Assembly (NCBI GenBank): GCA_018303505.1 | Contig: JAGVYA010000044.1 | Location: 1 to 52,647 of the forward strand | Direction: 5' to 3' | From: Candidatus Woesearchaeota archaeon | GTDB lineage: Archaea > Nanobdellota > Nanobdellia > Woesearchaeales > GW2011-AR4 | DNA length: 52,647 nt | Shown: one piece after another, positions 1,064 through 41,235 of the stretch | How positions within the stretch are numbered: the first letter of the stretch is position 1 | Layout of the letters: each line of letters begins with the position of its first letter | Made by a program: the position numbers and the translations under genes | The notes under the pieces: generated by a model | The model's database searches: none | Seen by the model: the letters and a program-made list of their open reading frames with translations, nothing else | Told to the model about the DNA's origin: nothing

Positions 1064-1066
1064 TTT

Positions 1067-1195: not shown

Positions 1196-1215
1196 TATTC
1201 CTGCTCTCTTTGAGC

Positions 1216-2428: not shown

Positions 2429-2451
2429 TTTAATTATTAATCGTTTTGAGC

Positions 2452-2721: not shown

Positions 2722-2768
2722 ACCCAAAATCCCTAAAGAACCAGATATATAAATATTTGGGTTACTTG

Positions 2769-3047
2769 CTATACACAGCAACAGACGTAACCTTTGGATA
2801 CATCAGAGTACTCCCCACCTACAGCTGTACCGCGCTCCTCACATGTTTGCTTAAGAATATCTCCGGCTGTAAATTTAGTTTTGCCCAGACTTTTACACAC
2901 ATTTTCACACGAAGCTGTACTTGAAACACCTTCACTAAAAATCTTAAACCTGCCTGTAAAAATAATAAACAAAACTACAAGAACAGCTAATGCAATTGCA
3001 GCAACAATAATTGTGTTGATAGAAATGCTTTGGGATTTTCTGAACAT
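2769..3047 (-). CDS. Mini-pilin paralog 2 (class III signal peptide, C-terminal CCC)
   Basis: MFRKSQSISINTIIVAAIALAVLVVLFIIFTGR. A 65-nt block (2968-3032) is identical to 3251-3315 in paralog 1. The protein ends in ...YVCCCV. Confidence 0.7.
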   Translation of the reverse strand: MFRKSQSISINTIIVAAIALAVLVVLFIIFTGRFKIFSEGVSSTASCENVCKSLGKTKFTAGDILKQTCEERGTAVGGEYSDVSKGYVCCCV

Positions 3048-3051
3048 ATTA

Positions 3052-3330
3052 TTAACTGCAACAGCAATATTTTCTACCAGATGCTTGCACATCAGAGTAA
3101 GTGCCTGCAATTATTTGACCTGGTGACACACATTCAACAGTAGAATCCACAAAAGAAGGTTTAAGATTTAACGAACTGCATTTCTGAGCACATGTATCAG
3201 TTTCCTGCACGCCTCTTGTAAACCCACCAAGCCTTCCAGTAAAAATAGCAAACAAAACTACAAGAACAGCTAATGCAATTGCAGCAACAATAATTGTGTT
3301 GATAGAAATGCTTTGTCCTTTCTTGCTCAT
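3052..3330 (-). CDS. Mini-pilin paralog 1 (class III signal peptide, C-terminal CCC)
   Basis: MSKKGQSISINTIIVAAIALAVLVVLFAIFTGR matches the archaeal class III signal peptide pattern (K/R-G then Q-x-S plus a hydrophobic helix). The protein ends in ...KYCCCS. Confidence 0.75.
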   Translation of the reverse strand: MSKKGQSISINTIIVAAIALAVLVVLFAIFTGRLGGFTRGVQETDTCAQKCSSLNLKPSFVDSTVECVSPGQIIAGTYSDVQASGRKYCCCS

Positions 3331-3400
3331 TTATGTAACCTCTTTTGATATCTAAGCGTTTATTATGGAAGTTATATTTAAATATTTGGATTTTAAATGT

Positions 3401-3490
3401 GTAGGCGAGGCGGAGTGATATGGCAGAAGAACGACGCCGAGCACTAACTATTGTCGCGAAGCGACGGATTGAAGGGTTAGTGCTTCGATA
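3401..3490. other. GC-rich structured intergenic island, possibly a diverged member of the GC-rich repeat family
   Basis: A roughly 90-nt GC-rich patch sits in an AT-rich spacer. It contains nested inverted repeats: gagcactaac...gttagtgct and an inner gtcgc-gaa-gcgac. The motifs gtaggcgagg and gacgccgagc resemble the 25.9-kb and 43.95-kb elements. Confidence 0.3.
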
Positions 3491-3495
3491 TCTTA

Positions 3496-3972
3496 TTACC
3501 CGCAAATATCAAGTTTAGTGTACATTGTAGCTACGCTTATTGGTATAGGGAATAGTTTTGACCTTTTGTCTGCCTTGCAGGGTTTTCCTACCTTAATTAA
3601 AGGCGATCTTATATCTGTATACGCCAGAAACTCGTATTGCATATTCCATTTATCAAAGGTCTGGTCAAATATGTAATTAGCAGTTGATTCAACAAACTTG
3701 CATGAGTCTTTTCCATCATCGCATATTATGCTTCTGGCTTGCGCGCAGTCCTGCAGAAGCTCTGTTACTGTAAGCTGTGAACACTCTTTAGCAGCTGTTT
3801 TAAGCAAGGTGTTAAGCATATTGGAAGCAATCTCTGAGCTGACAAACCCTTTTCTATATTCTGTTGGCGCTTTAAGCACTAAAAATCTGACAACAAAGAT
3901 GGTAGCCACCAATATCAGCACAACAACTATTGCCAATCCAAGTATTTCCGTCTGGGATTTCCTAGTTTTCAT
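3496..3972 (-). CDS. Pilin-like protein (class III signal peptide)
   Basis: MKTRKSQTEILGLAIVVVLILVATIFVV shows RKS-Q followed by a hydrophobic helix. The globular domain carries scattered Cys residues. Confidence 0.6.
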   Translation of the reverse strand: MKTRKSQTEILGLAIVVVLILVATIFVVRFLVLKAPTEYRKGFVSSEIASNMLNTLLKTAAKECSQLTVTELLQDCAQARSIICDDGKDSCKFVESTANYIFDQTFDKWNMQYEFLAYTDIRSPLIKVGKPCKADKRSKLFPIPISVATMYTKLDICG

Positions 3973-3979
3973 TTTTGGT

Positions 3980-4453
3980 TTATTTAAACAATGTTTCTAT
4001 AGTCAAAACACCAAATCCGTGCTTTCTTGTAGCAGGATCATACAATGATATAGGCACATTTGTCACAAACTTGCTATTGAAGTCCTCTATTTTTCTTGAA
4101 TATAAATTCCACTTTGCCTCATTAGGGTAAATTTGAGATATGCTTACATCGCTGAATTCAAGCAAATCGTAATAATAGATTTCATTCTTTTTCATTATGC
4201 TTTGCGCAGAATCTAATTTCAATATGTCAATGCAATTATCAATTATTATGTTATCTTCGCTGCACTGGACCTCTGGCAGAAACATGATTTTTTGGGATAT
4301 TCCAACTGATCTTAGCTGCGACAATTCTTCTGTTTCAAGTTCAATATTGCTTTTAATAATTTTTACATAGAACATAAAACCTATAATTATGAGTATGAAA
4401 AATACAAACAGCACAGCAATTGTCTCTCCAATCTGGATTTGCGCTTTCTTCAT
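3980..4453 (-). CDS. Pilin-like protein (class III signal peptide)
   Basis: The internal Met gives MKKAQIQIGETIAVLFVFFILIIIGFMFYV. The ORF-track start at 4483 would overlap the upstream gene. Confidence 0.55.
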   Translation of the reverse strand: MKKAQIQIGETIAVLFVFFILIIIGFMFYVKIIKSNIELETEELSQLRSVGISQKIMFLPEVQCSEDNIIIDNCIDILKLDSAQSIMKKNEIYYYDLLEFSDVSISQIYPNEAKWNLYSRKIEDFNSKFVTNVPISLYDPATRKHGFGVLTIETLFK

Positions 4454-4464
4454 TTTGGTATGGA

Positions 4465-5466
4465 TTAATAAATCAGGGTGCATGAGTATATCTGCGCATT
4501 TTTGTTTTCACTAGACAAGGATTTGGCAGAGTCTGCTATAACATCGATATTTCCCTTATTAAAATTTGAGGAAGCTGCAAATATGCTGTTTAACTGGCTT
4601 AATGCATTGCTATAAAACTGGTTGCATTGAAATTGCCTGCCAGATGTTGCTCCTTGCGTCAGTTTTTTTGTTCTTTCAGCATATATTTTAGTAACTAGAT
4701 TAAGCCTTGAAAATACATTTCGCATATTGCATTCATACACATCCAAAGTATCTGCGTATATTGCTCCAATCAAAGACTGCTTTCCAATATAGAATGATGT
4801 GCCTTTGGACAACCACGAATTACTTTCCTTTTGCCAAAACTCAATTATTCCCTTTTCACTATCTCCATTAATTTTAATTGCAGTCACGTCAGAATCCGGC
4901 ATCTTTTCCAATGCTTTTGGGAAATCGATAAGATTCTCAAAAAGCACAAATCTGATTTTATAATTATTCATATTTTTAATTTCTGGCATTGATTGATAAA
5001 ATTCTTTTTTTAATTCAGAAGGCATTGACTTGTTTATCTCTTTAGCAAGCTTACTATCGCCTATAATTATGTATCTCATCTGCGGGCTTGTAATATAGAG
5101 AAGATTTGTTGCCCTGTAAGGAGTGCTAAAAGCAAGTGTTTGCGTTATAAGCTTGTTTCCTTTGATTAGACTTGGGGCAAATAACACCAAACTTTGGTAC
5201 TGTTTTGAAACTCCTCCAATTGACACCCTGCCGCAATCTACTTCAATATCTGAATTTGGTATGTCTATGATATTTGTTGTATCTGTGCTCACGCTAGCTC
5301 CTGTTATTACAGCTTCCATGCTTTTTAGAATAGTGGCCTTTGTTGATGTTTCTGATACATTTTTCTGCTTAATAACAACAACTGTAAAGAACAAGATAAT
5401 TGCAGTTCCTGCAACCAGAACAAAAATCCAGTTAAACTGGATTTCAAATCCCTTTTTATTCATCAT
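4465..5466 (-). CDS. Pilin-like protein, 333 aa (class III signal peptide)
   Basis: MMNKKGFEIQFNWIFVLVAGTAIILFFTVVVI shows KKG followed by FEIQ and a hydrophobic helix. Confidence 0.6.
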   Translation of the reverse strand: MMNKKGFEIQFNWIFVLVAGTAIILFFTVVVIKQKNVSETSTKATILKSMEAVITGASVSTDTTNIIDIPNSDIEVDCGRVSIGGVSKQYQSLVLFAPSLIKGNKLITQTLAFSTPYRATNLLYITSPQMRYIIIGDSKLAKEINKSMPSELKKEFYQSMPEIKNMNNYKIRFVLFENLIDFPKALEKMPDSDVTAIKINGDSEKGIIEFWQKESNSWLSKGTSFYIGKQSLIGAIYADTLDVYECNMRNVFSRLNLVTKIYAERTKKLTQGATSGRQFQCNQFYSNALSQLNSIFAASSNFNKGNIDVIADSAKSLSSENKNAQIYSCTLIY

Positions 5467-5504
5467 GGCAGAGAAATTATGATTCCTGTTTAAAAATCAA
5501 TTGA

Positions 5505-6023
5505 TTAACTCCATTGGCTTAAAAAAACATGGTTGCCTTTGCCCTCTAACTTTATGCTTATTTTATTATTGGCAGCTTTGATGCACAGCACATCAGGCTC
5601 AACAGATATTTTTCCAGCATAAAATGATTCCTTTGCTATTTTCTCCACTAAGAAAACATTTTTTCCGGTATTTGACAATATGCTGTCTTTTATTATAGGA
5701 TCCACATTATTTGGCAGAGCAGGGCTTTCAAGAGTTTCAACAAAACAAACCTGCGCATAGCTAGCGCATAATTCGAGGTCTTTTCTTTTTATGCTTCCAA
5801 AATCGCTTGAGATGCTTTCTACTGCATTGATTAAATCATTTTTGAACTTAAGCATGCATACTTGCTCTGCTCTTTTTTTAAAATTCTGGACAGCATTGTA
5901 ACCATAAAACAAAATGAAAGATATTAATATTATTGTTAGAATATAGATGAATATCTGGCTGTAAAGCTGTGCTCTGTCATTTTTTAGCATTTTTGCGCAT
6001 TGCTGGCCTTTTCTTTCTTGCAT
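5505..6023 (-). CDS. Pilin-like protein (likely start at 5990)
   Basis: MLKNDRAQLYSQIFIYILTIILISFILFYG, read from Met12, has the RA-Q plus hydrophobic helix pattern. The longer ORF overlaps the tail of the giant gene. Confidence 0.5.
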   Translation of the reverse strand: MQERKGQQCAKMLKNDRAQLYSQIFIYILTIILISFILFYGYNAVQNFKKRAEQVCMLKFKNDLINAVESISSDFGSIKRKDLELCASYAQVCFVETLESPALPNNVDPIIKDSILSNTGKNVFLVEKIAKESFYAGKISVEPDVLCIKAANNKISIKLEGKGNHVFLSQWS

Positions 6024-9000
6024 CTTTTGCTATCTGCTTGAGTCTTATGAAAACATCCTCTTTTGGTTTTTTAGCCAATGTCTTTGTTTTCTTTGGTTTT
6101 GCAGGCTTTTGAATCTTTTTTTTAATCTCTTGAACATGTTTCTTCTCTTCCTTTACAACTTTTTGTTCTGCTTTGATTCCTTTAGGCTCTTCTTTTGCTG
6201 TTTCTTTTCCTTCTGCAAACTTTCCAAATAAACTTTCCCTTTCCTTTGCTTTCTGCTCCTCTCTCCTTTTAAGCGATTCCCTTATTCTTATTTCTTCTTC
6301 CTTTTGCCTTAACGGAATTTGTCTAGCTTGTTGTGGAGGAATTGCTCTTGGCATTTCTCTTTGCCTTGGCATCTCAAATTTCTCTTCTTTTCTTTTTTGC
6401 ACAAATCTATAAGCCAGGTATCCACATCCTGAAATTAAAACCACTATTCCAAAAATAAACATTAATATCTTTTTTAAATTTGACTTTGGAAAGTCTTCAG
6501 GGTCGACTGGACTTGTTCCTTTATCAATCTCTTCTTTATCAGTAAAACCATCGCCATCTGTGTCGGCCAGATTTGGGTCTGTACTCTGTGCATATGTTTT
6601 GTGCACTTCAAATTCTTCAGAATTAGTAAGACCATCGTTGTCTGGGTCTAAACCAGCATCATTTGGATCATTTGGGTTTAGTCCATTTTGTATTTCCCAT
6701 TCATCTGGCAAGCCATCTCCATCTGTATCTCTTGTGCCTTGCTCTACATTAGGTGTAGTACTTTTTTTACAAACATGTGATATACATTCTATGCCATCTA
6801 CACAATCTTCATTTACATTACAACTACTACCTTCTGAGCATTTTGTTGGGCAATATCCGCCGCAGTCTACATCTGATTCTCCTGGGCTGAGCTTGCTGTC
6901 AGAGCAGCTTTCCTGCGGCTTGCAGAATCCGAAACTGCAGAAATTGCTCTGACAGTCACTGTTAGTGTTGCATGTTTGACTATTTTGGCATTTTAAGCAT
7001 GGACCACCACAATCAATTGCAGATTCGCCTTGATTTCTTATTTCATCCTCGCATGATGAGCCTGAACATTTATTATTAAAGCAAAATCTACTTTCACAAT
7101 CTGAATTGTCTGTACATGGCTCATTCAACTGGCAATCTCCCCTATCTTTGCAACTGATTTGCAAAGCTGTAGTATTTGAGTTGCAACTACCTGTACTTAT
7201 CCTGCAATTACTGCAACTTAAGCTGCCGTTAATAAAGTTAGTGCTGTAAACCCTGCAGCTTAAATCTGTGAGGTCGCCGAAATTTATACTATCACAAGTC
7301 TCGCCAGGGTCAAGCAACTTGTTGCCACATTTTGGAGCCTGCTGGCATCCAAATGTATCAAGCTTGCAGTCGCTTGTGCATTTCAAAATGCCGCTTTGGA
7401 ATGAGTTGCTATAGGATGCGCAGCTAGTATTGATTGCTCCAAGATTACTACTGTCGCATTCTTCGCCTGGATCTATTAAATTATTTCCGCATTTTGGTTT
7501 TGGCACGCAAGCAGTTGTGTCGAGCTTGCAAGTATTGCCGCATTTCAGTGTTCCGCCAGCAAAATCTCCATAATTAGCACAATCTTTAATACTTCCTAAT
7601 GAAGTGCCGTCACAGGATTCACCAAGATTTATGATGCCATCTCCACAAGTTCCAGTTGTGCCAAAGCAGCTGCTTGTGTCAAGTTTGCATGCATTGCACT
7701 TTATCGTGCCTCCTGTGAATAAGTTTGAGTATTGGCTCGTGTCCATAAAGCAGTTTGATGCGCATGTTAAAGTCCCTCCTCCAAAGCCCAAATCAAGGCA
7801 GCTGTCAATTGCGCCGTAAAAGCTACTGTCACAGTGCTCTCCGGTTTCTATAACCTTATTTCCACAATAAGGCTGCAACACACAATTAGTTGTATCAATC
7901 TGGCATTTATTGCAGCCAAGACTACCGCTTATGAAATTATTGAAATGCGTGCATGTTTTTATAGCACCGAATGTAGGGCCTTTATCGTCACAAATTTCTC
8001 CTGAATCTACGTCTCCATCTCCACATATTTTTTGGTTTATTTTTGTGCACCCAGAAACATCTAAGTGGCATTCGTTTGAACAACTTAGTACTCCGCTATC
8101 ATATGCAGAAATGTCGCTACATTTCTTTACAGCACCGAATACTGTTTTGTCACACTCTTCTCCTGTATCAATGAAAAGATTGCCACATCCTTTTTCAATG
8201 CAAGAAGAAGTATCCAATTGGCATGATGCAGAGCATCGCAAAGTGCCTGCTACAAAGCTTTGATAATCTGTGCAGTCATTAATTGTGCCAAATGTTGTGC
8301 CGTCACAATCTTCATTATTATTAATAACATTATCTCCGCAAACGCCAGGAGGAGCTCCTTGGCATGCAGAAGTGTCTATCTGGCAACTAACACACTTCAA
8401 GTTGCCACTAGCGAAATTGTTGGAATAAGATTTGCAAGTTCCATCAAGGTTGCCAAAGTTTGTACCGTCGCATGTTTCGCCTGTGTCTATTACCCCATTG
8501 CCACATTTTGGCTTCTCCGCACAATTTTCAGTTGAAATCTGGCAATTACTGTTGCACTTTAATGTGCCGCTCTGGAATGAGTTGCTATAGGATGCGCAGC
8601 TTGTACCTATGTTGCCAAGGTTGCTGCCATCACACTGTTCCTTATCATCGATAAAGCCATTGCCACATGTTTGGGCAATTATACACCCACCAGTATCAAG
8701 CTGGCAGTTACTTGTGCATGTGAGAGATCCTGCGCTGAAGAAGGAACTATACTCCTTACAGCTGCTACTTATAATGCCTAAATTAGTTTTGTCACAGCTT
8801 TCGCCTGTGTTCACAACTCCATTTCCACATTTAGGCATTGGATTGCATTTGCTTGTGTCTAATTGGCAATTATTGCATGCTAGAAGCCCACTACTAAAGT
8901 CCTTATAGTCCTTGCATTCGTTAATTGCTCCAAATAAATTTCCATCACAATCCTCTCCGACATTAATGATATTGTTACCGCAAGTTCCACCTACTACACC

Positions 9001-12000
9001 CTGGCAACTTTCTGTGCTAATCTGGCATTTGTTATTGCACACCAAATTACCTCCTGTGAAGAATGTTGGGTTGTATCCTTTGCATGTTCCATCCGAAGGT
9101 CCAAAATTCTTGCCGTCGCAGGATTCGCCTTGGTCAATTATGCTGTTGCCACATTTTGATTTTTCCACACAGCCACTTGTATCAAGCTGGCATGTTGCTG
9201 GGTTGCATTTAAAAGTTCCGCTAATGAAATCTTTGTAGTCGGTGCATTCGTTAATTGCTCCAAATAAATTTCCATCACAATCCTCATTTTCATCTATCTT
9301 GCCATTGCCGCAAGTTGGTACATCAATACATCCGCTTAAATCCAGGAGGCAATTGCTTGTACAATCTATGTCACCGCCAATAAAGTTAGAGTAATCAGTA
9401 CACTCATTAATAAACCCAAATACGTTACCATCACAAAGCTCACCACTTTCTATTTTGTTATTGCCACATTTTGTAGATGCAATACAACCAGATGTATCGA
9501 GCAGGCAATTACTCGTGCATTTCAAAATGCCGCCCTCAAACTCGTCGAAGTCTGTGCATTTACTTATTGCCCCAAATACATTTGTGTCACAAGCCTCGCC
9601 TGAATTTACTACCTTATCTCCACAGAATGAGATGCCTGATGTTGGTACACATAGTGCTGTGTTGAATGTGCAGTCTCCTTTGCATGATAATGCGCCACTT
9701 GCATAGCCTAATGATTGGCATGTTTTTCCATCTAAAGATGTTTTGTCACATTCTGGCTTATCTACAACTGTATCGCCGCAGTATTTTGGCTCTGGGTCAG
9801 AGCAACCAGTTGCGTCAAACTTACATGATGATAAACATTTAAGAGTTCCCTGCTTTAAGCCAAGTGTCTGGCAGGATTTCCCTCCTAAATCGCTTGCATC
9901 ACAGTCTTCGCTCACTTGGTTTTTTACTTCATCTCCACATTTTGGAAGTATTGTTGCTGAGCATTCTGAGAAATCAAAGGAGCAATCTCCTTTGCACGAC
10001 AATTGGCCTCCAGAGAAGGCAGCAAAGGAAGTGCATGCTTTGCCGTTTAAGTTAGAACTGTCGCAGTCTTCATTTATGCCTGCCGTATTTGGTCTTTGCA
10101 CAAATGTATCTCCACAGTATTTGTCAGTTGGGGCTTTGAGGCAGCTGCTAGTGTCATAGTTGCAGCCCGATGTGCATCTTAATGTTCCTCCAAGAGAATA
10201 CCCAAGTGATTTGCAGGTGTTGCCTCCTAAATCTGAGGCATCACAGTCTTCGCTGTTTCTCTTTGCATCTCCGCAGATTGGATCTGCAGGTTTTTCTATG
10301 CAGTCAGTTGTATCAATCTGGCAGTTTTTGCATTTTAGATTGCCGCTTTCAAAATTGTTGTTGAAACCTTTGCATGTTCCATCTAAATTGCCAAAGTTTG
10401 TACCATCGCAAAGCTCGCCTGTGTCCAAATTGCCATTGCCGCATTTTGTTGAAACGCATTCTGAAGTGTCAAGCTTGCAATCGTTGGAGCATTTGATAGT
10501 GCCTTCAACAAAGAAGGTGCTATAGTCAGCGCAGTTGCCTGACAATGGACCTAGATTTGCGCCGTCGCATGCTTCGCCTTTTTCAACAGCTCCGTTGCCG
10601 CATTTTGGTTTTTCAATGCAGCTTGTTGTGTCAAGCTGACATGCTGAATTGCATTTAAGTGTGCCTCCGCTGAATGTAGAGAAGTCTGTACAACTCTTTA
10701 TTGCACCAAACTTAGTGCCGTCGCATTGCTCGCCAACATTAAGAACACCATTCCCGCATGTTCCTTGTATGCCTTGGCATTTTGAGGTATCAATTTTGCA
10801 ATTACTGCAACTGATTGTTCCTCCTGTGAACGTTGAAGGATTGTATTCAGCACAGTCGCCAGATAATGGACCTAGGTTAGTGCCATCGCAGGATTCGCCT
10901 GCATCAATGGCGCCATTTCCACATTTTGGTTTTTCAATGCAGCTTGTTGTGTCAAGCTGACACGTCGCAGTGCACCTTAAAGTGCCGCCAGAGAATGATG
11001 CACTATAAGAAGTACATGTCTTTATTTGACCAAATATAGCGCCGTCGCATGCTTCTCCTGGGTCAAGGAAATTATTGCCGCAAGTTGGTACTTTTATACA
11101 GCCTGATGGATCCAAGTTACAATCATTTGTACACCTTAAAGTTCCTCCAATAAAGTTTGTATAATCTGTGCAATCATTTATTGAGCCAAATACTGCTACG
11201 CCTTTGTCTGGATCACAAAGTTCGCCTGGACCTAGCTTGCTATCCCCGCAAAATCCTCCTGTGGTTACATCTTTACAACCGGAAGTGTCAATTTGGCAAT
11301 TTGTGCATTTTAAGTTGCCACTGACAAAAGTGTTTGAGTACGAAACACAAGTTCCATCTAGGTTGCCGAAGTTAGTTCCATCGCATGATTCAGCTGCATC
11401 TATGAATCCGTTGCCGCAAGTTACCTTTTGAAGACAACTTTCAGTTGAAATCATGCAATTATTTGTGCATTGCAATAATCCACTTATGAAAGAATCACTA
11501 TAAGAAGCACAATTTTTATCAAACTTGCCAAAGTCTGTGCCATCGCATTGCTCATTGTTAATTACTTCAAGTATATTGTTGCCACAGGCACCTTTTTTTG
11601 CACAATTTGAAGTGTCAATCTTACAATTACTTGTGCAACTTAATGTTCCACTCTCAAACGAACTGCTGTAAGCTGCACAGCTTGTACTCAAATTACCGAA
11701 GTTTGTGCTGTCACATTCTTCTGCATCGTCAATAATTTTGTTGCCACACAAAGGAGCTTCTTGGCATCCAGTTGTATCCAGCTTGCAATTGCTGCTGCAT
11801 TTTATGGTTCCTCCAGAGAAATAACTACTATAATCAGCACAATTTCCACTTAAAAAACCAATGTTGCTACCATCGCATTCTTCGCTTGGATCGATCAAGC
11901 TATTTCCACATTTTGGCGTAGGAGCGCAGCCTTTTGTATCTAAGTTGCAGTTATTGCAACTCAATATTCCGCCTGAAAATCCTAAGTCAAAGCAACTGTC

Positions 12001-12186
12001 TATAACTCCAAACAAGCTACCATCGCATTTCTCATTTATGTTTATTGCGCCATCTCCACAAGTTCCAGTTGTGCCAAAGCAGCTGCTTGTGTCAAGTTTG
12101 CATGCATTGCACTTTATCGTGCCTCCTGTGAATAAGTTTGAGTATTGGTGCATTTGCTCGTGTCCATAAAGCAGTTTGATGCGCAT
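5977..12186 (-). CDS. Giant cysteine-rich repeat surface protein, 2069-aa ORF (probable C-terminal part of a ~3.4-kaa protein)
   Basis: By eye there are about 31 tandem 50-60-aa units of the form CG(N/D)G..D.GE.CD....G.....C..Y...F..G.L.C...C..DTS.C. These are followed by CxxDxDCxxxFC-type modules, DTDGDG/DPDNDG TSP3-like repeats, a TM segment (ILMFIFGIVVLISGCGYLAYRFV) and a K/E/R-rich tail. There is no N-terminal signal peptide. Confidence 0.85.
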   Translation of the reverse strand: MRIKLLYGHEQMHQYSNLFTGGTIKCNACKLDTSSCFGTTGTCGDGAININEKCDGSLFGVIDSCFDLGFSGGILSCNNCNLDTKGCAPTPKCGNSLIDPSEECDGSNIGFLSGNCADYSSYFSGGTIKCSSNCKLDTTGCQEAPLCGNKIIDDAEECDSTNFGNLSTSCAAYSSSFESGTLSCTSNCKIDTSNCAKKGACGNNILEVINNEQCDGTDFGKFDKNCASYSDSFISGLLQCTNNCMISTESCLQKVTCGNGFIDAAESCDGTNFGNLDGTCVSYSNTFVSGNLKCTNCQIDTSGCKDVTTGGFCGDSKLGPGELCDPDKGVAVFGSINDCTDYTNFIGGTLRCTNDCNLDPSGCIKVPTCGNNFLDPGEACDGAIFGQIKTCTSYSASFSGGTLRCTATCQLDTTSCIEKPKCGNGAIDAGESCDGTNLGPLSGDCAEYNPSTFTGGTISCSNCKIDTSKCQGIQGTCGNGVLNVGEQCDGTKFGAIKSCTDFSTFSGGTLKCNSACQLDTTSCIEKPKCGNGAVEKGEACDGANLGPLSGNCADYSTFFVEGTIKCSNDCKLDTSECVSTKCGNGNLDTGELCDGTNFGNLDGTCKGFNNNFESGNLKCKNCQIDTTDCIEKPADPICGDAKRNSEDCDASDLGGNTCKSLGYSLGGTLRCTSGCNYDTSSCLKAPTDKYCGDTFVQRPNTAGINEDCDSSNLNGKACTSFAAFSGGQLSCKGDCSFDFSECSATILPKCGDEVKNQVSEDCDASDLGGKSCQTLGLKQGTLKCLSSCKFDATGCSDPEPKYCGDTVVDKPECDKTSLDGKTCQSLGYASGALSCKGDCTFNTALCVPTSGISFCGDKVVNSGEACDTNVFGAISKCTDFDEFEGGILKCTSNCLLDTSGCIASTKCGNNKIESGELCDGNVFGFINECTDYSNFIGGDIDCTSNCLLDLSGCIDVPTCGNGKIDENEDCDGNLFGAINECTDYKDFISGTFKCNPATCQLDTSGCVEKSKCGNSIIDQGESCDGKNFGPSDGTCKGYNPTFFTGGNLVCNNKCQISTESCQGVVGGTCGNNIINVGEDCDGNLFGAINECKDYKDFSSGLLACNNCQLDTSKCNPMPKCGNGVVNTGESCDKTNLGIISSSCKEYSSFFSAGSLTCTSNCQLDTGGCIIAQTCGNGFIDDKEQCDGSNLGNIGTSCASYSNSFQSGTLKCNSNCQISTENCAEKPKCGNGVIDTGETCDGTNFGNLDGTCKSYSNNFASGNLKCVSCQIDTSACQGAPPGVCGDNVINNNEDCDGTTFGTINDCTDYQSFVAGTLRCSASCQLDTSSCIEKGCGNLFIDTGEECDKTVFGAVKKCSDISAYDSGVLSCSNECHLDVSGCTKINQKICGDGDVDSGEICDDKGPTFGAIKTCTHFNNFISGSLGCNKCQIDTTNCVLQPYCGNKVIETGEHCDSSFYGAIDSCLDLGFGGGTLTCASNCFMDTSQYSNLFTGGTIKCNACKLDTSSCFGTTGTCGDGIINLGESCDGTSLGSIKDCANYGDFAGGTLKCGNTCKLDTTACVPKPKCGNNLIDPGEECDSSNLGAINTSCASYSNSFQSGILKCTSDCKLDTFGCQQAPKCGNKLLDPGETCDSINFGDLTDLSCRVYSTNFINGSLSCSNCRISTGSCNSNTTALQISCKDRGDCQLNEPCTDNSDCESRFCFNNKCSGSSCEDEIRNQGESAIDCGGPCLKCQNSQTCNTNSDCQSNFCSFGFCKPQESCSDSKLSPGESDVDCGGYCPTKCSEGSSCNVNEDCVDGIECISHVCKKSTTPNVEQGTRDTDGDGLPDEWEIQNGLNPNDPNDAGLDPDNDGLTNSEEFEVHKTYAQSTDPNLADTDGDGFTDKEEIDKGTSPVDPEDFPKSNLKKILMFIFGIVVLISGCGYLAYRFVQKRKEEKFEMPRQREMPRAIPPQQARQIPLRQKEEEIRIRESLKRREEQKAKERESLFGKFAEGKETAKEEPKGIKAEQKVVKEEKKHVQEIKKKIQKPAKPKKTKTLAKKPKEDVFIRLKQIAKDARKKRPAMRKNAKK
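7636..7812. repeat. Copy A of a 177-nt duplicated segment (in-frame version)
   Basis: 7636-7735 equals 12049-12148, and 7736-7812 equals 12157-12233. Copy B carries 8 extra nt (tgcatttg, 12149-12156). Confidence 0.9.
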
Positions 12187-12233
12187 GTTAAAGTCCCTCC
12201 TCCAAAGCCCAAATCAAGGCAGCTGTCAATTGC
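12049..12233. repeat. Copy B of the duplicated segment, with the 8-nt indel at the junction of the 1396-aa and 2069-aa ORFs
   Basis: Direct comparison with 7636-7812. The extra 8 nt shift the frame exactly where the upstream ORF terminates (stop at 12114-12116). Confidence 0.9.
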
Positions 12234-15200
12234 TCCAAATAATTTACCATCACAATGCTCTCCTTTCTGTAATATTCTATCTCCGCAGAATGGTTGTTGA
12301 ATGCAGTTTGTTGTATCTGGCAAGCAAGTTGTTAGAGAACATAGCAATTCGCCACCAATAAAGTTGGTGTAGTCTGTACACTCGTTAATTGGACCAAAAA
12401 TAGTAGTTCCATTGGCATTCTCGCAAAGCTCGCCAGGATCAAGGCTGCCATCTCCGCAGAATGCTTTTGCCTTGCATAAGGACTGTTCAACCATAATGCC
12501 ATCGCTGTTTTTAGGTAAGCCGACTAATCCTACAAAATTTTTTGCATTCGATTTGAAATAATATTGGGTATTGTCTTCTAAATTTAAATTTTGGACCCAA
12601 ATCCATTCATCACCAATAAAAGATTGTATTAAGGCTGTAACTGGTTTATTATCCAGTTTTTTTATTAGTGAATAGAAATACTCTTTAATTCCTGTTTCAG
12701 CATCTTCCCCAAGGAATTTAACTCTTAGGCGGTCTGTCAAGCATGTTTTATCTGGGGGAAAGCTTTCTGTGCTTGTATCATCAACAAAAAGCATTACAGG
12801 GGCTGTAACATCTATTAAAAATTGGATTACTTTTACATCAGAAAATGCTCCTAAGAACTGGTCTTTGCAAACTACGAAAAATGTATGCTCGCCGGGTGCT
12901 AATTTTAATTGCCTTGTGTGAATATAGCCTGGTGCTCCGAATATTTCCCCTGATTGGGCCGTGCTGTCTGTTTCTGAAAACTTACATTGTGATTTTTTGT
13001 TTGTTTCGATAGACAGCAAAACATTTGTTGTATTGAAGAATTCTAGCGTATGTGAAATGATTGACATTGGAATTGATAAGTCGACCTTGATTTGGATTTC
13101 CTTGACCTCTGATTCAAGTTCTGCCCTGTTTTCACATGCAACAAAATACACATGATTCCCTTCATTTTCCAAGGTGATTAACTGTTTATTTATTGTTTTA
13201 AAGCTAGCATTTTTGGATCCTTCAAATTGACCTTCCATAGAATCAAAATCCTTTGAAACAGTACTAAATTTGCAAACAACTGGCTCATTAGCTTCTGCTG
13301 TCAATGTTGTAGTTGATGGCTTCTCAATAACGGGGTTTGGAAATGCAAATGCATTAATTAACCCTGGTGGTGTTGTGTCAACATTTATATCGAAAATTTT
13401 AAATGCAGTTCCATGCCTATCTTGGCACCTTATATAGAGTTTATGGGTGCTCGTATCGCCAGTTGCTATCTTGTTGAAATTTGTAACAGTATGCATAGTC
13501 CCGTCTGTAATTGTGAATTTGTCCATAAAATTAAATTCAAAATTATCATCTAGAGAATATCTGCAAATTGCATTATTATCAGTTTCTATAACAATATCAA
13601 AAATATACTTAGATGATGTGCCAAATCTTGGATTTACAAGACTTATCGTTGTTGGATTTGCATCAACTATGAATTCAATATTTTTTTTAACGCTATTTTT
13701 GGCAAAGTCCATTGCATCGACTTCTAGTTTTTTATTGCCGTCTAACAAGTTTAATGTTGCTGTGAATAACTTATTGTCTATTGTTGTAAACCTATCTTTT
13801 ATCTCATCAGAATTTAACTGAACTGTATTTAGATTAACCTCTTTATCAAATATTAGTTGTATAGTTACAATTGATTTATTTAATATCGCACCATCAGAAG
13901 GTATAATAGTCAATATAGGATTGATATTATCAATAACGATGATTTGTGATAATGGCGGGTCCATAAAGATATTTTCTTTGTTTTTGGCATTTAATTCGAA
14001 AGTGTACTCCCCATTAGGTAGAACCTCGCCAACCACAAAGTTAACCTTATTGTTAAGTTCTAAACTTGCTGGGAAAGTAACTATTGATCCTGTTTTTTTG
14101 TTAATAAGCCTCGAATAAGTCACAATTGTTGGCTCAAAAAATTGAACTTCTATCGTTGGTTTTTGATTGCTTGTATATATTTTGTCCAATATTTTTGTAC
14201 CACCAGTTATATTAATGCTCAACACTTTTGGTCCAGCTGTTCCGCTATGAGCATCTATGTTTATCTTCTTGACTTCTCCTATGTTTTTGGATGGGTCCTG
14301 TGAATAATATCTAATTACACCAATCCCTTCGTTTAAGGTTAATAATCTGCTCCCGTTGTTGCCATCATAAGCATTTAGATTGCTTATTACTATAAGCCTA
14401 CTCGATGTAGAAATACTGTAAGGATGCCCATTAAATCCGCAAGGCTCTACGCAAAGATATGTTAAATAGTCTTGAGATGTCTTCAGAATTATTGAGCTGT
14501 TAATACTTGTCCTATCATAAACCATTATGACAAGGCTATCAACTATTCCTTTTTTTATTATTGGCGTTAATGTCACATTAGGAGCAAAATAATCACGCTC
14601 ACAGGCTTTTGTAGTGCAGTCCGCCTTATCATCGCCATCTGCATTCTTAAAACATTTGCTGTTTATGTTTTGGCACACCCCAATTGCACAATTGTCTAGA
14701 GAAGGGTTTAAAATTTTGTTTTTCTCATCATGCGTTATTTGTGTATTGCTACATTGTTCTGTGCCATAATCGCTACAAACAATATCTCCGCAATTTCTTG
14801 ATTGTCCACTGCTGAAATAGCACTTATACTCGCCAACAGACAATGCCTCAGACTTTTGCTGAGTGCAGAAATCAAAAACTTCGTTGAAAGCCCTTAAATT
14901 CTCTAAAGACTTTGTTCCTTTCTTTTCACACCATTGGCAGTTATATTCACTTGTACTCACGCATGCCCCTATGCCAATCTGATTTGCCAGGCTTTTCCAT
15001 TTGCAGTTTCCGATGCGGCAGTTGTCTCTGCTGCATGCCTCTCCTGTTTTATAGTCGTAACATGCCATTGATGTGTCGCATGCAAAGCAAGAATCCACAG
15101 TTGAGTGCGACTTATCATAAAAACAGTACCTATCATTTTCACAGGCATCCAAAGTGTAATATAAGCCAAATGGGTTTGCATTATTGTAATTACAGCTGAT

Positions 15201-16304
15201 TTTGCTTAAGCATGATGGCTTGTTATTATTAACAACACAGATTTGTGTTGGAGAGCATGAAGTTCCTTCCGGTATGAGTTTGTTGACTGTGTCGCATGAA
15301 AATGCCTTGTTAAGCCTGTCTCCAAATTTGTTTTTGATTCCAAGAGAAAAATCTTTCAAGAAAATTTCTGGAAAATTTGCTAACAGATAGTTTCTGTATC
15401 TATTGTAATATGAATCATGTATGCAGAAATTATTAGACGAGAATTGCTTCATGCATTCTATGCTGCCTAAAGTTGCTGTTTTTGTTATTGCGGGAGTAGC
15501 TGTTTGCAGATTGTATCTTGATTTGATTTGGTATGTGTATGTTGTGTCAAATAGTAAATCACCAGACACATCTTCAAAAGAATTGGTGTTGGTTATGCCT
15601 ACAAGAGCAAAATTTGTACAACCGCTTTCTTTGCACCTTAATACATCATAAGACACTGCTGTTTCGCTGCACTCGTCTTTCCATCTAAGCAAAAATGTCT
15701 TTTGCCCCTTGACTGGGATTACTTCCAAATTGCTCAATTTTGGCATGTAATTTGGGTTGCTGCAGCCAGCACCCTCTGTAACACAGCTTCCTCCTGATTC
15801 GGCATTATCAGCAGGGCTTGTGCAGCCTAGGTCGCCACCTTCAAAATCCGCACATCCATTGTTGTCATTGTCTATGGCGTCATTACATTGCGGGACTGGG
15901 CATACAAGATTGCAGTTTGTTTGGCCTTTGTAAAAAGTCAGCCCAGTTCCTTTGCACTGCGCTTCAGGCTTAATCGAACCTCCTAATTCAGAGCAACAGC
16001 AACCAAGAGCGCATGCAGTTATCGTTAGGTCTGAGCACGCTTTATTGAGAAAAAAGAAATTGGCTGCACATTCATTTGAGTTGGTTGGGCCATCTGGATT
16101 TTGCTGCGATTTGTAATAGCCTGGAAAGCTTGCTTCTGGTTTTGGGCAGCATTCCTTATCCCTTAAAGCAAGCCTGTCTGTTGAGCATGTTAAAGGACCA
16201 GCGCCAGGGTTGCTGCAGCACCCAACTTCATCAGCAAAGGCAGTGTTTAAACTAACAAAGAATATAAAAATTAGTACAAGCGCCTCTTTTTTTATCCTGC
16301 TCAT
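12114..16304 (-). CDS. Giant secreted multidomain surface protein, 1396-aa ORF (probable N-terminal part of the fused giant protein)
   Basis: Cleavable-looking signal peptide MSRIKKEALVLIFIFFVSLNTAFA/DE. Cys-rich N-terminus, an FN3-like segment and long beta-rich repeats. The last ~110 aa are two of the same 6-Cys repeats as in the downstream ORF. Confidence 0.8.
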   Translation of the reverse strand: MSRIKKEALVLIFIFFVSLNTAFADEVGCCSNPGAGPLTCSTDRLALRDKECCPKPEASFPGYYKSQQNPDGPTNSNECAANFFFLNKACSDLTITACALGCCCSELGGSIKPEAQCKGTGLTFYKGQTNCNLVCPVPQCNDAIDNDNNGCADFEGGDLGCTSPADNAESGGSCVTEGAGCSNPNYMPKLSNLEVIPVKGQKTFLLRWKDECSETAVSYDVLRCKESGCTNFALVGITNTNSFEDVSGDLLFDTTYTYQIKSRYNLQTATPAITKTATLGSIECMKQFSSNNFCIHDSYYNRYRNYLLANFPEIFLKDFSLGIKNKFGDRLNKAFSCDTVNKLIPEGTSCSPTQICVVNNNKPSCLSKISCNYNNANPFGLYYTLDACENDRYCFYDKSHSTVDSCFACDTSMACYDYKTGEACSRDNCRIGNCKWKSLANQIGIGACVSTSEYNCQWCEKKGTKSLENLRAFNEVFDFCTQQKSEALSVGEYKCYFSSGQSRNCGDIVCSDYGTEQCSNTQITHDEKNKILNPSLDNCAIGVCQNINSKCFKNADGDDKADCTTKACERDYFAPNVTLTPIIKKGIVDSLVIMVYDRTSINSSIILKTSQDYLTYLCVEPCGFNGHPYSISTSSRLIVISNLNAYDGNNGSRLLTLNEGIGVIRYYSQDPSKNIGEVKKINIDAHSGTAGPKVLSINITGGTKILDKIYTSNQKPTIEVQFFEPTIVTYSRLINKKTGSIVTFPASLELNNKVNFVVGEVLPNGEYTFELNAKNKENIFMDPPLSQIIVIDNINPILTIIPSDGAILNKSIVTIQLIFDKEVNLNTVQLNSDEIKDRFTTIDNKLFTATLNLLDGNKKLEVDAMDFAKNSVKKNIEFIVDANPTTISLVNPRFGTSSKYIFDIVIETDNNAICRYSLDDNFEFNFMDKFTITDGTMHTVTNFNKIATGDTSTHKLYIRCQDRHGTAFKIFDINVDTTPPGLINAFAFPNPVIEKPSTTTLTAEANEPVVCKFSTVSKDFDSMEGQFEGSKNASFKTINKQLITLENEGNHVYFVACENRAELESEVKEIQIKVDLSIPMSIISHTLEFFNTTNVLLSIETNKKSQCKFSETDSTAQSGEIFGAPGYIHTRQLKLAPGEHTFFVVCKDQFLGAFSDVKVIQFLIDVTAPVMLFVDDTSTESFPPDKTCLTDRLRVKFLGEDAETGIKEYFYSLIKKLDNKPVTALIQSFIGDEWIWVQNLNLEDNTQYYFKSNAKNFVGLVGLPKNSDGIMVEQSLCKAKAFCGDGSLDPGELCENANGTTIFGPINECTDYTNFIGGELLCSLTTCLPDTTNCIQQPFCGDRILQKGEHCDGKLFGAIDSCLDLGFGGGTLTCASNCFMDTSKCTNTQTYSQEAR

Positions 16305-17509
16305 ATTCTATTGATAGTTATGATTTGGTAATCAGATAATTGTCCGTCATTAACTTCTACCTTAAATTTAATTTGTGGCACATTCAATACTTTTGGCAAT
16401 GAAGGTGTGATGGTAATTGTATAATTATCCTCATCAGGATCTTCTGCTTTTAATTGTGAGTTTTGCAATAAATCTTCTTTTTTTATTTCATAGTTTTGTG
16501 GGAATTGCAAAGTTGTTTTTCTTATATAATGAAGCACAGGTGCTCTGTTACGTCTAGCAAATATGTACTCAGATGGCTTGCCAGATATTAATGATTTTTC
16601 GTCAGTTATAATAATTAAATCATCATTAGAAAATATATTTTCGATTAATTTAATGTTTATAAAATCTTTACTATTGTTAATGTTTCCAATATCAAATTTT
16701 ATATTTTTAATATCGTTTTCGATTAATTCTTTTGCAAAAAAATAGACATCTCTGAGCCTTATATTTAAGCTAGTTGAGAATTTGTTAAGCTCAGTAAATT
16801 CTTTTGTTGCTTGATTAGTTATTATTATTGGAACTTTTGATGCAACACTTACATCGCCGCTTCCTATAATAACAGATGTTTTTGATGGCTGCATTTCTAT
16901 GCTAAAGCCTTGTTTTTCAAAAATATTAAAGTCTAAGCAGCTTGCTATGTTATTGTCTATGAAAGATTCTATCTGGACTTGAATTGAATTTGGGCCTCCA
17001 GAAGAGTTTAATGGTGGAATGTGGTTTATGCCAAAAAACCCTTCAAATACCTCTGCATTTGAGGTTGCTGTCCTATAAGGGAATGTCCGCCATGGATACT
17101 CTGGAATTTCTGAAGAATATGGGAAAGGTGAATATAGACTGGGCTCTATGGCTAATGCAGGGGGCAATACATTGTAAGCCACATTCAAATTGTTGTAGTT
17201 GACAAAAAACAATCCTTCATCTGTATCTTGATAATCAACTAAAGTGCCACCTTGGCTTATGTATATGTAGCCTCCTTGCCTGCCCAATAGCACAACTGCA
17301 TCTTTTGCAAGCTTATCAAGGCATTTTGCTACAAACTCCTTTATTGAATATGTGTCAATTGCAGTCTCCTGTATTCCTTTTATATTCTGCTGGCTTTGCT
17401 TTTTTACTGCTGACTTGGAAAGGTACAAAATCAAGCTTACCACTATAAAAAGAACTAAGCCAACTATCATTAGCATTGTGACCTGTGATTTTAAAGATTT
17501 AGTGCTCAT
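16301..17509 (-). CDS. Pilin-like / N-terminally anchored protein, 402 aa
   Basis: MSTKSLKSQVTMLMIVGLVLFIVVSLILYL shows KS-Q followed by a hydrophobic helix. There are ATGA overlaps at both ends. Confidence 0.55.
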   Translation of the reverse strand: MSTKSLKSQVTMLMIVGLVLFIVVSLILYLSKSAVKKQSQQNIKGIQETAIDTYSIKEFVAKCLDKLAKDAVVLLGRQGGYIYISQGGTLVDYQDTDEGLFFVNYNNLNVAYNVLPPALAIEPSLYSPFPYSSEIPEYPWRTFPYRTATSNAEVFEGFFGINHIPPLNSSGGPNSIQVQIESFIDNNIASCLDFNIFEKQGFSIEMQPSKTSVIIGSGDVSVASKVPIIITNQATKEFTELNKFSTSLNIRLRDVYFFAKELIENDIKNIKFDIGNINNSKDFINIKLIENIFSNDDLIIITDEKSLISGKPSEYIFARRNRAPVLHYIRKTTLQFPQNYEIKKEDLLQNSQLKAEDPDEDNYTITITPSLPKVLNVPQIKFKVEVNDGQLSDYQIITINRI

Positions 17510-20500
17510 TTCAACCTCAGTTTAGAAGTCAAATCAGGCCATATTGATTCTGGATTAATGTTTGTGAATTGGCTGCCTTGGACAAGAACATAGTAATTAT
17601 TGCCTTCCTTCTTGCATGATATGCCGGATGAAACATCTTTTTTTGCTTGGCTGAACTGCTCAACAAGTTCGCATATGTCTGTATCAAAGTTTCTATATTC
17701 TATTACCACATTCTTGAAGTTTTTTCCTTCTATTGTGCCAGTTATTGCTTTATTTCCTTGTTGTGATATATACAGCTTATCAAACTTTTTAATACCTTTA
17801 ACATAAGACTCGTCAAATGGTGGCGTTGTAATGAGTCTTTTTATAGAATCAATTATACTTTTAATCGGATTGTAAATAAATTCTTCAAATAAGCTAAGCA
17901 AGTTTTGCTCTGATGGAATTGTTATGGCGCTTGCGCTGTAGATAAAGCTTTTTAGCCTTTTATTAAACCATACCTTGTTGGTTGCATCACAGCTATGGTA
18001 TTGGCCATCATCTATAAATGCGGAATCACAACTTGTAACTCCAAATATATTTAATGTGTTAGATGGCACTTCTTCAAGTTCTTTATTTATCGATGTTGCA
18101 GCTATTATTTTGTTTCCTGTTTTAAGGACACAGAAGTTATTTGTTTGGATATTAGTTAATATGTTAGCTACTATCTCGTTTGATTCAGTTAAATATTGCA
18201 AATTGTTTAATGTATTATCTCTGTTATCGCAGAAAAGCGTAAAGTCGCCGCTCTTAAGCTTTAACAATTTCAATGCTAATAGCTTAGTTCTTGAAGACCA
18301 TTGTCCATTTTCACAGAAATTGTCGTCTATGTATTGACCAGATTCTATGCACTGGCTTGTTTCATTTTTTCCAAAAACATTAACAAGACATTGTGTTTCT
18401 TTTGGACAATATCCTGAAACAGTACCATCAGGTGTAAACTTCAGATTGGTTTTTACCCATTCACCGTCTATGCACCTAAAGCCATCACCTATTGGTTGTG
18501 CCAACGGTTTGTTTCTTTGATTTTCAATGCATTTATCGCCGTCCCAGCACTCATTTTGTGCACAACATTCTGCTGTTTGATTTGGATTTGATATAGGCGC
18601 AAAGCTTAAATGTATAGTATCAATTCCGTCTGTTGGAAGCCATTTTTCAGTGTAAGAGCAGTAATAGTTCTTTTCTGGATCATTAAAGCAGTAAGGATGG
18701 TTTGTTATTAAAGGAGCACCTGTATGTTTGTCCGCCAAGCCTAAAAGATTATCATTATTCTTGTTGAAATTTGCTTTGTCAATTGCACAGCCATGAAATT
18801 CGCCATTGTAATTCATTACAGAGTTGCTAGTATCTTTAACAAAATCTACGCTTATCACTAAATTTGAGTTCCAACAACCTCCTATTGTACCATGGTCATT
18901 ATAATACTCATTTGCATCATCAGCTTCGCTGCAGCATTTTGTGCCAGTCCATTTGAAGCCTGCTTTTTCACATGTTGCTTTATTCTTGGCATTTAACGCA
19001 GCATCATTTTTCTGTGCATCTGGTGTATCTAAATCAGTGACAAATTTGCTGTCAGTCCTGCAGTAGTATGTTGTGCCAGTTGTGGTGGTGCCAGCAACTG
19101 CAGCTCCTGTGATTGATTTTAGACCAACATTGTTTGAAGAATATTTTCTTGATTCGTCAAATGGATTTTGGATTTGGTTTGCTACAACATTCCCTGTTAT
19201 TGTAATGCCTGAATCCCTCAGTCCATCTGCAATTCCTAATATGGCACCCATATCAATGGATTTTTTCTCAACATCATACATTACAAAATGGCTTCCTCTG
19301 CTGAGCACATTTTTAGCATAATCTCTCACTCTACCCCTGTCTGCTGGCTCACCAAAGCAAACATTGCCACCAACTTCGTCACATCCATTAAGCCAGTTTA
19401 TTGGAGGACTGCAATCGGAGTTTACAATGAAAGTGCCGCCACCAGGTCCCGTGTCAGAGATTGAACATGGATGATAGTCTAAGTAATGATTCGGCGGGCC
19501 TGAGGTTGGTCTTGCGCCTTCATTCCATGATTTTACTCCAGGCCAGTTTGCTGCAACATAATCTGCCCATCTTCTAAATTTGTCACCGCCCCATTCGCTT
19601 CCTGCCTGTAATATCACTTTGTTAATTCCAATATTTTGCTTTATCCATTCAACCTCTCCGATAAACCATTCATCTGTTGCCTCTTCATTAAGCCATCTGC
19701 CATTAGCATTTGCGATATTGATAAATGTCCAGACATTTCTTTTTCGCATTGCATCAACTAAGGCTTTCGCTTCGTTTCTTCTTGCAATTCTTGGATCAGG
19801 ATCTTCGCTTCCGCCTGGCACATACTCTATCAAAACAAGGTTAAGGCCGTTATCAGCAAGTGTATTTGCAAGAGCATCTGCCTGTCCAGTATTAACAATA
19901 TGGCTGTCCCAATAATTGGCAGGTCCCCAGCCAACAAAAATACTTGGCTTTGTGCCACCCCCTCCATTTATACCTCCACCACCTCCGCCAGCTCCATTAT
20001 ATGATTGTCCTGTTGCCAGTCTTTTTCCATCTGTTTTAGATATGCATGCATTGTCACCACAGCATTCAAGAATTGACTCTCTTCCTGTTTTCGTGCACAA
20101 ATAATCATGATTACTTACAGTATTCTTCCAGAATGAGCCAAAACATCCAATCCATGTTGAGCCGTCTGCTAAATATTCATTATTTGAACAGCCTAAATAT
20201 CTGATATTACCTCTTTCTGCTGGCGAAGAAATCCAAGATGGAGAGCCACCTTCTGAGTCTAGATGACAAATATCACCGCCTTCCAGACTTGCGCAATCCT
20301 CTCCATCATCCCCGCAGCATCCTGGCCCCCAATCTCTGTTGCCTACATTATTACCAATCTGACAAGACAAACACGAAGTTTCACTCCAATCAGGATCGTC
20401 ATCGTCATCGTCACCGCAGCATAGCTTAACTTCAGCATCCCAAACTAATTCACCTAAAGCATTTCGAGTATATTTGCATTCTGCGCAAAATGATTTTTTT

Positions 20501-25718: not shown

Positions 25719-25736
25719 TTCGCTAGAAAATCTAGT

Positions 25737-25775: not shown

Positions 25776-25776
25776 T

Positions 25777-25808: not shown

Positions 25809-25896
25809 ATGGGTTTTATCTTTATTGTTTTTATTTATTTTCAGCATTGTGACCACTGGACATCTCTGTGTAAGATATTTAAAGTGAGAAAACAAG

Positions 25897-41234: not shown

Positions 41235-41235
41235 A

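Follow-up and report, generated by a model that had tools for sequence, protein, structure and literature searches.

Background

Several known systems resemble the locus that we describe here. The SPEARE proteins of Nanohaloarchaeota are giant secreted proteins, anchored in the membrane and rich in repeats; these are small-genome DPANN archaea presumed to attach to hosts. Another group is formed by the proteins with TIGR02232 (myxo_disulf_rpt) or Pfam DUF4215 repeats which also contain PF18884: their repeat units start in the same way as those presented here, with CG(D/N)G...(E)CD. Orthologues are found in Woesearchaeota and Nanoarchaeota, for example P0001 (2008 aa), P0002 (2011 aa), P0006 (1690 aa) and P0020 (2295 aa), with an N-terminal domain 40–71% identical to the one studied here. 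A search of the literature on comparable proteins of DPANN archaea or Woesearchaeota gave nothing specific. A precedent of a different kind comes from sequence assembly: a de Bruijn contig built with k=100 reaches 99 nt into a repeat.

We have analysed a stretch of 52,647 nt from a Candidatus Woesearchaeota archaeon (contig JAGVYA010000044.1), which we will call the window. A giant gene appears in it as two ORFs of 1396 and 2069 aa, which overlap by 73 nt. The split between these two ORFs is very probably a local misassembly inside an exact repeat of 273 nt.

Parts of the giant gene

The features of the gene, in the order of the protein, are the following:

12114–16304, minus strand: ORF of 1396 aa, the N-terminal part of the giant gene
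16233–16304, minus strand: signal-peptide-like N-terminus, MSRIKKEALVLIFIFFVSLNTAFA/DE, found by inspection of the sequence and kept in the orthologues
7177–12458 (approximate bounds), minus strand: six-Cys repeat array with 32 recognisable units of ~50–57 aa each
5977–12186, minus strand: ORF of 2069 aa, the C-terminal part of the same giant gene
6523–6729, minus strand: bacterial-type TSP3 (calcium-binding) repeats, PF18884
6397–6471, minus strand: C-terminal transmembrane helix, KILMFIFGIVVLISGCGYLAY, found by inspection of the sequence and kept in the orthologues

The 1396-aa ORF contains the signal peptide, an ectodomain of ~1,280 aa rich in Ig-like domains and the first Cys-repeat units. 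The 2069-aa ORF contains the Cys-repeat array, three more Cys-rich modules, the TSP3 repeats, the transmembrane helix and a Lys-rich tail: the latter has 140 aa, is rich in Lys and Glu and comes after the helix. The units of the array follow the pattern CG[DN]G..(E)CD ... C..C..DT..C. They match TIGR02232: the whole protein scores 88 bits, the curated cut-off being 20.8 (E=2.5e-25). The TSP3 repeats match PF18884, with 47.3 bits against a gathering threshold of 25 (E=1.8e-12). The score for Pfam DUF4215 (PF13948) is 17.2 bits, under its gathering threshold of 27.

A signal peptide, one transmembrane helix and a positively charged tail in one polypeptide are the features of a type I single-pass surface protein, which is the topology we predict, judging by eye from the single ORF of a sibling assembly and from the orthologue sequences. 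The signal-peptide-like N-terminus of the upstream ORF and the C-terminal helix and tail of the downstream ORF had already been noticed in a preliminary description of the window, and our inspection agrees with it.

Orthologous genes

There are 75 strong homologues of the 1396-aa ORF; the named ones carry the label Woesearchaeota or Nanoarchaeota. One further match is weak, a protein of 2149 aa with E = 6e-21. The full-length orthologues are single proteins of ~1,550–2,300 aa, which cover 91–99% of the 1396-aa query. They share one layout: a signal peptide, a conserved ectodomain of ~1,280 aa, six-Cys units, three Cys-rich modules, TSP3, a transmembrane helix and a Lys-rich tail, which ends in ...KKPKEDVFIRLKQIAK...KNAKK as it does in the 2069-aa ORF of the window. 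The TSP3 repeat, which in the window is situated towards the C-terminus of the downstream, 2069-aa ORF, is present in most homologues of the 1396-aa ORF according to precomputed annotation. The number of repeat units is variable, from 0 to 12 per orthologue.

The gene neighbourhood is also conserved. In L001 and L002, which are among the closer relatives, the giant gene comes after a gene of 396–414 aa (402 aa in the window); in L002 and L003 it is followed by genes of 158–172, 333–338, 150–167 and 158–159 aa, as in the window. Since the orthologues are single ORFs with both halves and have the same gene order, the single-gene reading of the preliminary description is right: the two ORFs form one giant type-I surface-protein gene. 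The comparison of orthologous loci, which had been proposed there, gives the same answer, with a single gene in the relatives and not two, and a sibling assembly described below also reads through as one ORF.

The duplicated segment in the window

The split between the ORFs lies in a duplicated segment, which has the following parts:

12049–12233, minus strand: site 1, a shortened copy of a 273-nt exact repeat, by comparison with the sibling scaffold L006
7636–7812, minus strand: site 2, another shortened copy of the same repeat, by the same comparison
12149–12156, minus strand: 8 apparently extra nucleotides (CAAATGCA on this strand), the same in L006 and in the relative L007, and matching the orthologue P0002

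When the window is compared with itself, positions 12049–12148 are identical to 7636–7735 (0 mismatches in 100 nt) and 12157–12233 to 7736–7812 (0 mismatches in 77 nt), exactly as had been reported. The sole difference between the copies at 12.1 and 7.7 kb are 8 surplus nucleotides, TGCATTTG, at 12149–12156. Directly beyond the matched blocks the identity of the two copies drops to ~40–60%. Other exact repeats in the giant gene are far shorter, the next ones having 43, 41 and 29 nt, and the remaining units of the array are only 60–82% identical to each other. Given the exceptional length of the exact repeat and this divergence of the units, the duplication is not due to chance. No homopolymer of 6 nt or more is found within 100 nt of the ORF overlap, and the 8 nt do not repeat the adjacent sequence in tandem.

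If the 8 nt are removed, a single uninterrupted frame of 3,439 codons is obtained. As it stands, two stretches are read out of frame: the end of the 1396-aa ORF (11 codons, 12114–12147, TNTQTYSQEAR*) and the start of the 2069-aa ORF (13 codons, MRIKLLYGHEQMH, 12148–12186), the latter corresponding to ...TCASNCFMDTSKC in the other frame.

The orthologues give a different meaning to the 8 nt. P0002 and P0051 have two complete units in place of the fused one of the window, which has 73 aa: ...CAQNCFLDTSKC-TPKPL-CGNGLIDPGEDCDGNNLGPVNSQC-KQYSNLFTGGTLKC... The 8 nt and the next base align with AAATGCAC of P0002 (Lys-Cys-Thr); the residues of P0002 and P0051 opposite the 8 nt are K-C-T/Q codons. The 8 nt are genuine codons from the end of an intact unit (DTS-K-C-T) and no insertion. 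In a nucleotide alignment with the P0002 form, the copy at 12.1 kb is short by 88 nt and the one at 7.7 kb by 96 nt. Two of the 32 recognisable units of the array are artefactual fusions, one at each site.

The intact repeat in a sibling scaffold

Three proteins, P0084, P0085 and P0086, fall in the same 90% cluster as the 2069-aa ORF. The first of them is found on scaffold ANAN16-1_SAMN03842437_scaffold_6483, our locus L006. Its identity with the window is 100% along 7,593 nt (window 19740–12148) and 99.99% along 7,737 nt (window 7737–1); both come from the same population. L006 is longer than the window by 88 nt at site 1 and by 96 nt at site 2. Both of its sites hold one 273-nt stretch, exactly alike, which codes for two intact units (…CFMDTSKCTPKPLCGNSIIDQGEECDGSNIGPLSGDCRQYSNLF…) and encodes ...GAIDSCLDLGFGGGTLTCASNCFMDTSKCTPKPLCGNSIIDQGEECDGSNIGPLSGDCRQYSNLFTGGTIKCNACKLDTSSCFGTTGTCGDG... 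in L006. The open frame of L006 has 3,602 codons (3434–14239), its gap of 100 N counted in. The real gene has thus at least ~3,500–3,600 codons.

The losses in the window can be placed precisely. Site 1 retains the first 86 nt of the repeat (12233 to 12148) and its last 99 nt (12147 to 12049): 88 interior nt are absent between 12148 and 12147 and, since 88 leaves a remainder of 1 when divided by 3, the frame is shifted at this upstream copy. Site 2 retains the first 78 nt (7812 to 7735) and the last 99 nt (7734 to 7636); here 96 interior nt, or 32 codons, are absent and the frame is kept. In both sums, 86+99 and 78+99, one base per junction may be assigned to either side. The 8-nt "indel" is simply the difference between losses of 88 and 96 nt. 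The earlier picture of an 8-nt insertion in a 177-nt duplication has to be replaced by a real duplication of 273 nt, which lacks 88 nt in one copy and 96 nt in the other.

Two smaller differences are also found. The window is 6 nt shorter than L006 at 10254/10255 and 21 nt shorter at 9754/9755, in both cases in frame; the canonical form is that of L006. These two indels fall outside long exact repeats and could correspond to a slightly different real strain. L006 has its own defects: a 100-N gap with extra unit material near window positions 10200–10254, and array pieces which follow each other in a strange order. None of the available assemblies of the array can therefore be trusted fully. 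The relative L007 (ORJL010253774.1), ~90% identical, has an intact site 1 and an open frame of 2,091 codons or more.

Other assemblies of the same population

Further contigs were retrieved through the flanking proteins of 402 and 172 aa; their flanks are 99.7–100% identical to the window. An intact interior of the repeat is present in eight contigs from seven other assemblies, namely L006, L009, L011, L015 and L016–L019. Apart from L006, the contigs that reach the repeat are the following:

L009 and L011 (MEGAHIT, k141): enter on the side of the N-terminus, run along the intact repeat and stop exactly 141 nt in
L016 and L017 (MEGAHIT): begin precisely with base 1 of the repeat and contain all of its 273 nt
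L018 and L019 (MEGAHIT): begin 55 and 12 nt inside the repeat, with an intact interior
L015 (SPAdes): full repeat between the left flank of site 1 and the right flank of site 2
L010 (Logan, k31 unitig): a ninth contig, which stops 30 nt into the repeat, short of the interior

In L015 the left flank of site 1, the repeat and the right flank of site 2 are joined in frame and give a form of 2,000 aa, the size of the orthologues P0001 and P0002. Its coverage is ~3x.

The junction strings of the window, GAGCAAATGCACCAATACTC and GACACGAGCCAATACTC, are found in the window only and in no other assembly that we compared. Exact look-ups of both ORFs and of P0003 in a contig index gave no match. When metagenome and genome collections were scanned for the junctions with a gap of 0–10 nt, none was found, this gap being too small for the intact form; a later scan of the collections did recover the intact form. 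A virtual peptide spanning the junction in frame, used as a homology query for protein fragments at read level, gave just four distant bacterial matches and missed even the close orthologues.

Origin of the split

At both junctions of the window, the piece of the repeat kept next to the unique flank has exactly 99 nt, or k-1 for a k of 100. The distance of the breakpoint from the repeat boundary changes with k: 99 nt in the window, 141 nt with MEGAHIT at k141 and 30 nt with Logan at k31. Both lesions lie strictly within an exact repeat which is longer than k and than the reads (273 nt, compared with a maximum k of 100 and 150 bp). In the study named in the record of L006, reads of 150 bp were assembled by IDBA-UD with --maxk 100 (PMC5079060). 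Its scaffolding errors were typically found at wrong joins of two contigs, and some of them were patched with Velvet (PMC5079060). We infer that the contig of the window comes from the same study and the same assembler as L006; the exact step behind the joins, be it in the assembler, the scaffolder or curation, is likewise deduced. The sample of the window itself is presumably free of the deleted forms.

The most likely course of events is the following. The array of the organism has a perfect duplication of 273 nt at two places, ~4.4–4.8 kb apart, longer than a 150-nt read and than any assembler k-mer. Contigs running into the repeat from their unique flanks would have been joined wrongly in the assembly of the window. 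The interior lost at these joins would be 88 nt in the upstream copy, with a shift of frame, and 96 nt in the downstream copy, in frame; the giant gene would then be seen as ORFs of 1396 and 2069 aa. The left-hand cut points, 86 and 78 nt into the repeat, fit no simple k-mer rule. An artefact is favoured because two real deletions would need one common endpoint at k-1 and because no other assembly has either junction. An assembly or collapse error in repeats was one of four causes which the preliminary description had left side by side, and it is the one that we prefer. What had been taken there for a recombination scar at the junction would be the scar of a contig join, absent from every other assembly.

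The public record shows one giant surface-protein gene as two "hypothetical proteins". Its annotation has a false C-terminus (1396 aa), a false N-terminus (2069 aa) and lacks 32 genuine residues at the 7.7-kb site. It would be misleading to read the locus as a pseudogene, as a secreted protein of 1396 aa or as a signal-less protein of 2069 aa. The locus is also a worked example of how a misassembly can be spotted without reads: by junctions at k-1, by sibling assemblies which break at their own k and by orthologues with intact units.

Alternative explanations

It is very unlikely that the deletions are real, so that a strain lost 88 and 96 nt and was left with a recent pseudogene or with a truncated, secreted product of 1396 aa. 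True micro-heterogeneity is hinted at by the two further small in-frame indels with respect to L006, and the repeat arrays of the orthologues clearly gain and lose units (0 to 12). However, two separate events with one common endpoint would be required, and in both copies this endpoint is exactly 99 nt (k-1) away from the boundary of the repeat. Neither junction is found in the eight contigs which show the interior and which come from seven other assemblies of this population, and the flanks differ by just 0–1 substitutions in more than 15 kb. Independent data of the same population do not reproduce the lesion. Nor is there any decay past it: the downstream 2,069 codons are entirely open, which argues against an old pseudogene, and the region is 99–100% identical to the intact sibling. 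With an intact form in other assemblies and an open downstream frame, the recent pseudogenisation that had been proposed loses its ground.

Two other histories of the segment were considered and dropped. One is an evolution in two steps, with an 88-nt deletion, gene conversion and a compensating 8-nt deletion; it was abandoned in view of the intact repeat in sibling assemblies. The other is a foreign origin of the 4.4-kb segment between the copies, whose units are orthologous to the arrays of the relatives.

The 273-nt repeats might also be a working recombination device, with real long and short forms and with the window junctions as rare real by-products. If true, a DPANN archaeon would vary the length of a host-contact protein or turn it on and off; we give this a very small chance. 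In a related reading, in vivo recombination of the 273-nt repeats would switch between alleles of ~3,600 aa, ~2,000 aa and out of frame, with phase or length variation as a result. The SPAdes contig L015 does give the in-frame 2,000-aa form, and two relatives of ~90% identity, L007 at site 1 and P0085 at site 2, encode near-identical copies of this stretch, which fits ongoing gene conversion. Yet L015 has ~3x coverage and a path over a 273-nt repeat is a classic collapse error; homologous recombination of intact repeats would never yield the junctions of the window. A simple-sequence or homopolymer tract, as found in phase-variable contingency genes, is absent at the frameshift site, which excludes phase variation of that type. 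Switching similar to phase variation, another of the causes in the preliminary description, is extremely improbable.

A functional split, through programmed -1 ribosomal frameshifting or through a separate start of translation at ATG 12186, has a practically negligible chance: the heptamer T TTG GGC at 12212 does fit X XXY YYZ and a Shine-Dalgarno-like GGAGGAGGG lies 8 nt upstream of that ATG, but each of these motifs consists of Gly/Phe/Leu codons belonging to the repeat, occurs just as well in the 7.7-kb copy, which is in frame, and was judged to be a coding by-product; ~0.13 heptamers are expected by chance in the 34-codon overlap; relatives have no frameshift to decode; a product from 12186 would have no signal peptide and 13 out-of-frame residues at its start; and sibling assemblies contain an intact single ORF. 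Programmed frameshifting, which the preliminary description had also listed, thus finds nothing to act upon in the relatives.

History of the array

A block analysis shows that the array is a mosaic: from block to block, the best match is found in the array of another orthologue. Units of P0002 type are found at both ends, a full set U1–U6 of P0001 type at residues 1683–2007 of the fused protein and units of P0056 type at fused residues 2008–2224. This arrangement suggests that the ancestral array was long and that its units were lost differentially. The identity over 273 nt of two paralogous pairs of units, mirrored in the close relatives L007 and P0085, points to gene conversion. A mosaic array and gene conversion are ordinary for repeat-rich surface proteins.

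Comparison with known systems

A conserved giant Cys-repeat protein, associated with a pilin cluster and with 0 to more than 34 units in related Woesearchaeota, is modestly interesting but not surprising. Its likeness to SPEARE proteins is a functional analogy only, drawn from size, anchoring and repeats. Compared with the TIGR02232/DUF4215 proteins, the units of the window are longer, with six Cys and ~50–57 aa, and belong to an archaeal type-I membrane protein; unlike in those systems, its N-terminal domain of 1,280 aa is named in no library.

The junctions of the window resemble the errors of repeat collapse and scaffolding with short reads, in which contigs end k or k-1 bases inside a repeat. 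They differ from the usual contig break or run of Ns, since the contigs on the two flanks would have been joined to each other without a gap, after the trimming of another 13 and 21 bases. The orthologues in Woesearchaeota and Nanoarchaeota have the same C-terminal modules, tail and neighbours as the window. They bear 0, 4, 6 or 12 repeat units, whereas the population of the window has at least 34, in a protein of ~3,500–3,600 aa.

Repeat array of the giant gene

The array of the giant Cys-repeat surface-protein gene extends over 7177–12458 of the window, residues 1283–3050 when its two ORFs are joined. It is a mosaic: from block to block, the closest match changes from the array of one orthologue to that of another (P0001, P0002, P0034 and P0056 are such orthologues):

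Both ends of the array: P0002-type units.
Middle of the array: the complete P0001-type set of six units, U1–U6.
After the P0001-type set: four P0056/P0034-type units.

The number of units is at least 32, whereas the orthologues have 0, 4, 6 or 12.

In the middle of the array the window is shorter than the sibling scaffold L006 by 6 nt at 10254/10255 and by 21 nt at 9754/9755. Both differences are in-frame and fall in type-II units, CGDAKRN[QV]SEDCD and CGDTVVDKP[NTPGFNE]ECD; the canonical form is that of L006. The latter has at 9636–9847 a gap of 100 N and additional unit sequence, which have no counterpart in the window. Neither the window assembly nor L006 can be relied on for this middle part.

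A shorter path is found in L015, a SPAdes contig from the same population (ENA ERZ5996431 NODE_3577, coverage about 3). At 3934–4207 it joins in frame the left flank of site 1 (12049–12233), the full 273-nt repeat and the right flank of site 2 (7636–7812), the two sites being, in the window, truncated copies of this repeat. The resulting gene would have roughly 2,000 aa, the size of the orthologues, and lack the 4.5-kb middle. Two explanations fit this short form: the assembly collapsed across the repeat, or the short allele is genuine.

In the frame of the giant gene the heptamer T TTG GGC (12206–12212) fits the formal X XXY YYZ pattern of a -1 slippery site; it directly follows the stop which opens the frame of the downstream 2069-aa ORF. 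We judged it a chance occurrence: an identical heptamer is found at 7785–7791, so that both repeat copies have it.

Other genes in the window

A run of plus-strand ORFs occupies 39340–52189. Two of them look by eye like ribosomal proteins, judging from their sequence:

From 39340, plus strand: 333-aa ORF, N-terminus MPRTRQPRAGSMQFWPRVRS.
From 41513, plus strand: 239-aa ORF, N-terminus MGKNLIQQKRGKGSPRYRAPSFRY.

The equivalent of 25164–27901 is annotated in the sibling MEGAHIT contig L009 with genes for a TBP-domain protein (184 aa) and an MCM helicase (704 aa). A 66-nt exact direct repeat is present at 2967–3032 and 3250–3315, 283 nt apart, in a region with no long ORFs; there the annotation of L006 has a series of small genes of 92, 107 and 89 aa, which are probably tandem paralogues.

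Gene cluster around the giant gene

The giant gene is housed in a conserved cluster on the minus strand, with identical gene order in the loci of three relatives (L001, L002 and L003):

Within 16301–21192, minus strand, upstream: genes of 1228 and 402 aa.
Within 437–6023, minus strand, downstream: genes of 172, 333, 167 and 158 aa; beyond these, 368 and 208 aa.

Searches of the cluster genes against Pfam and NCBIfam gave no match. Most of their products start with a short charged stretch, followed by a hydrophobic helix (for example MMNKKG/FEIQFNWIFVLVAG and ..KKA/QIQIGETIAVLFVFF), and by sequence these N-termini resemble the class III (pilin-like) signal sequences of archaea.
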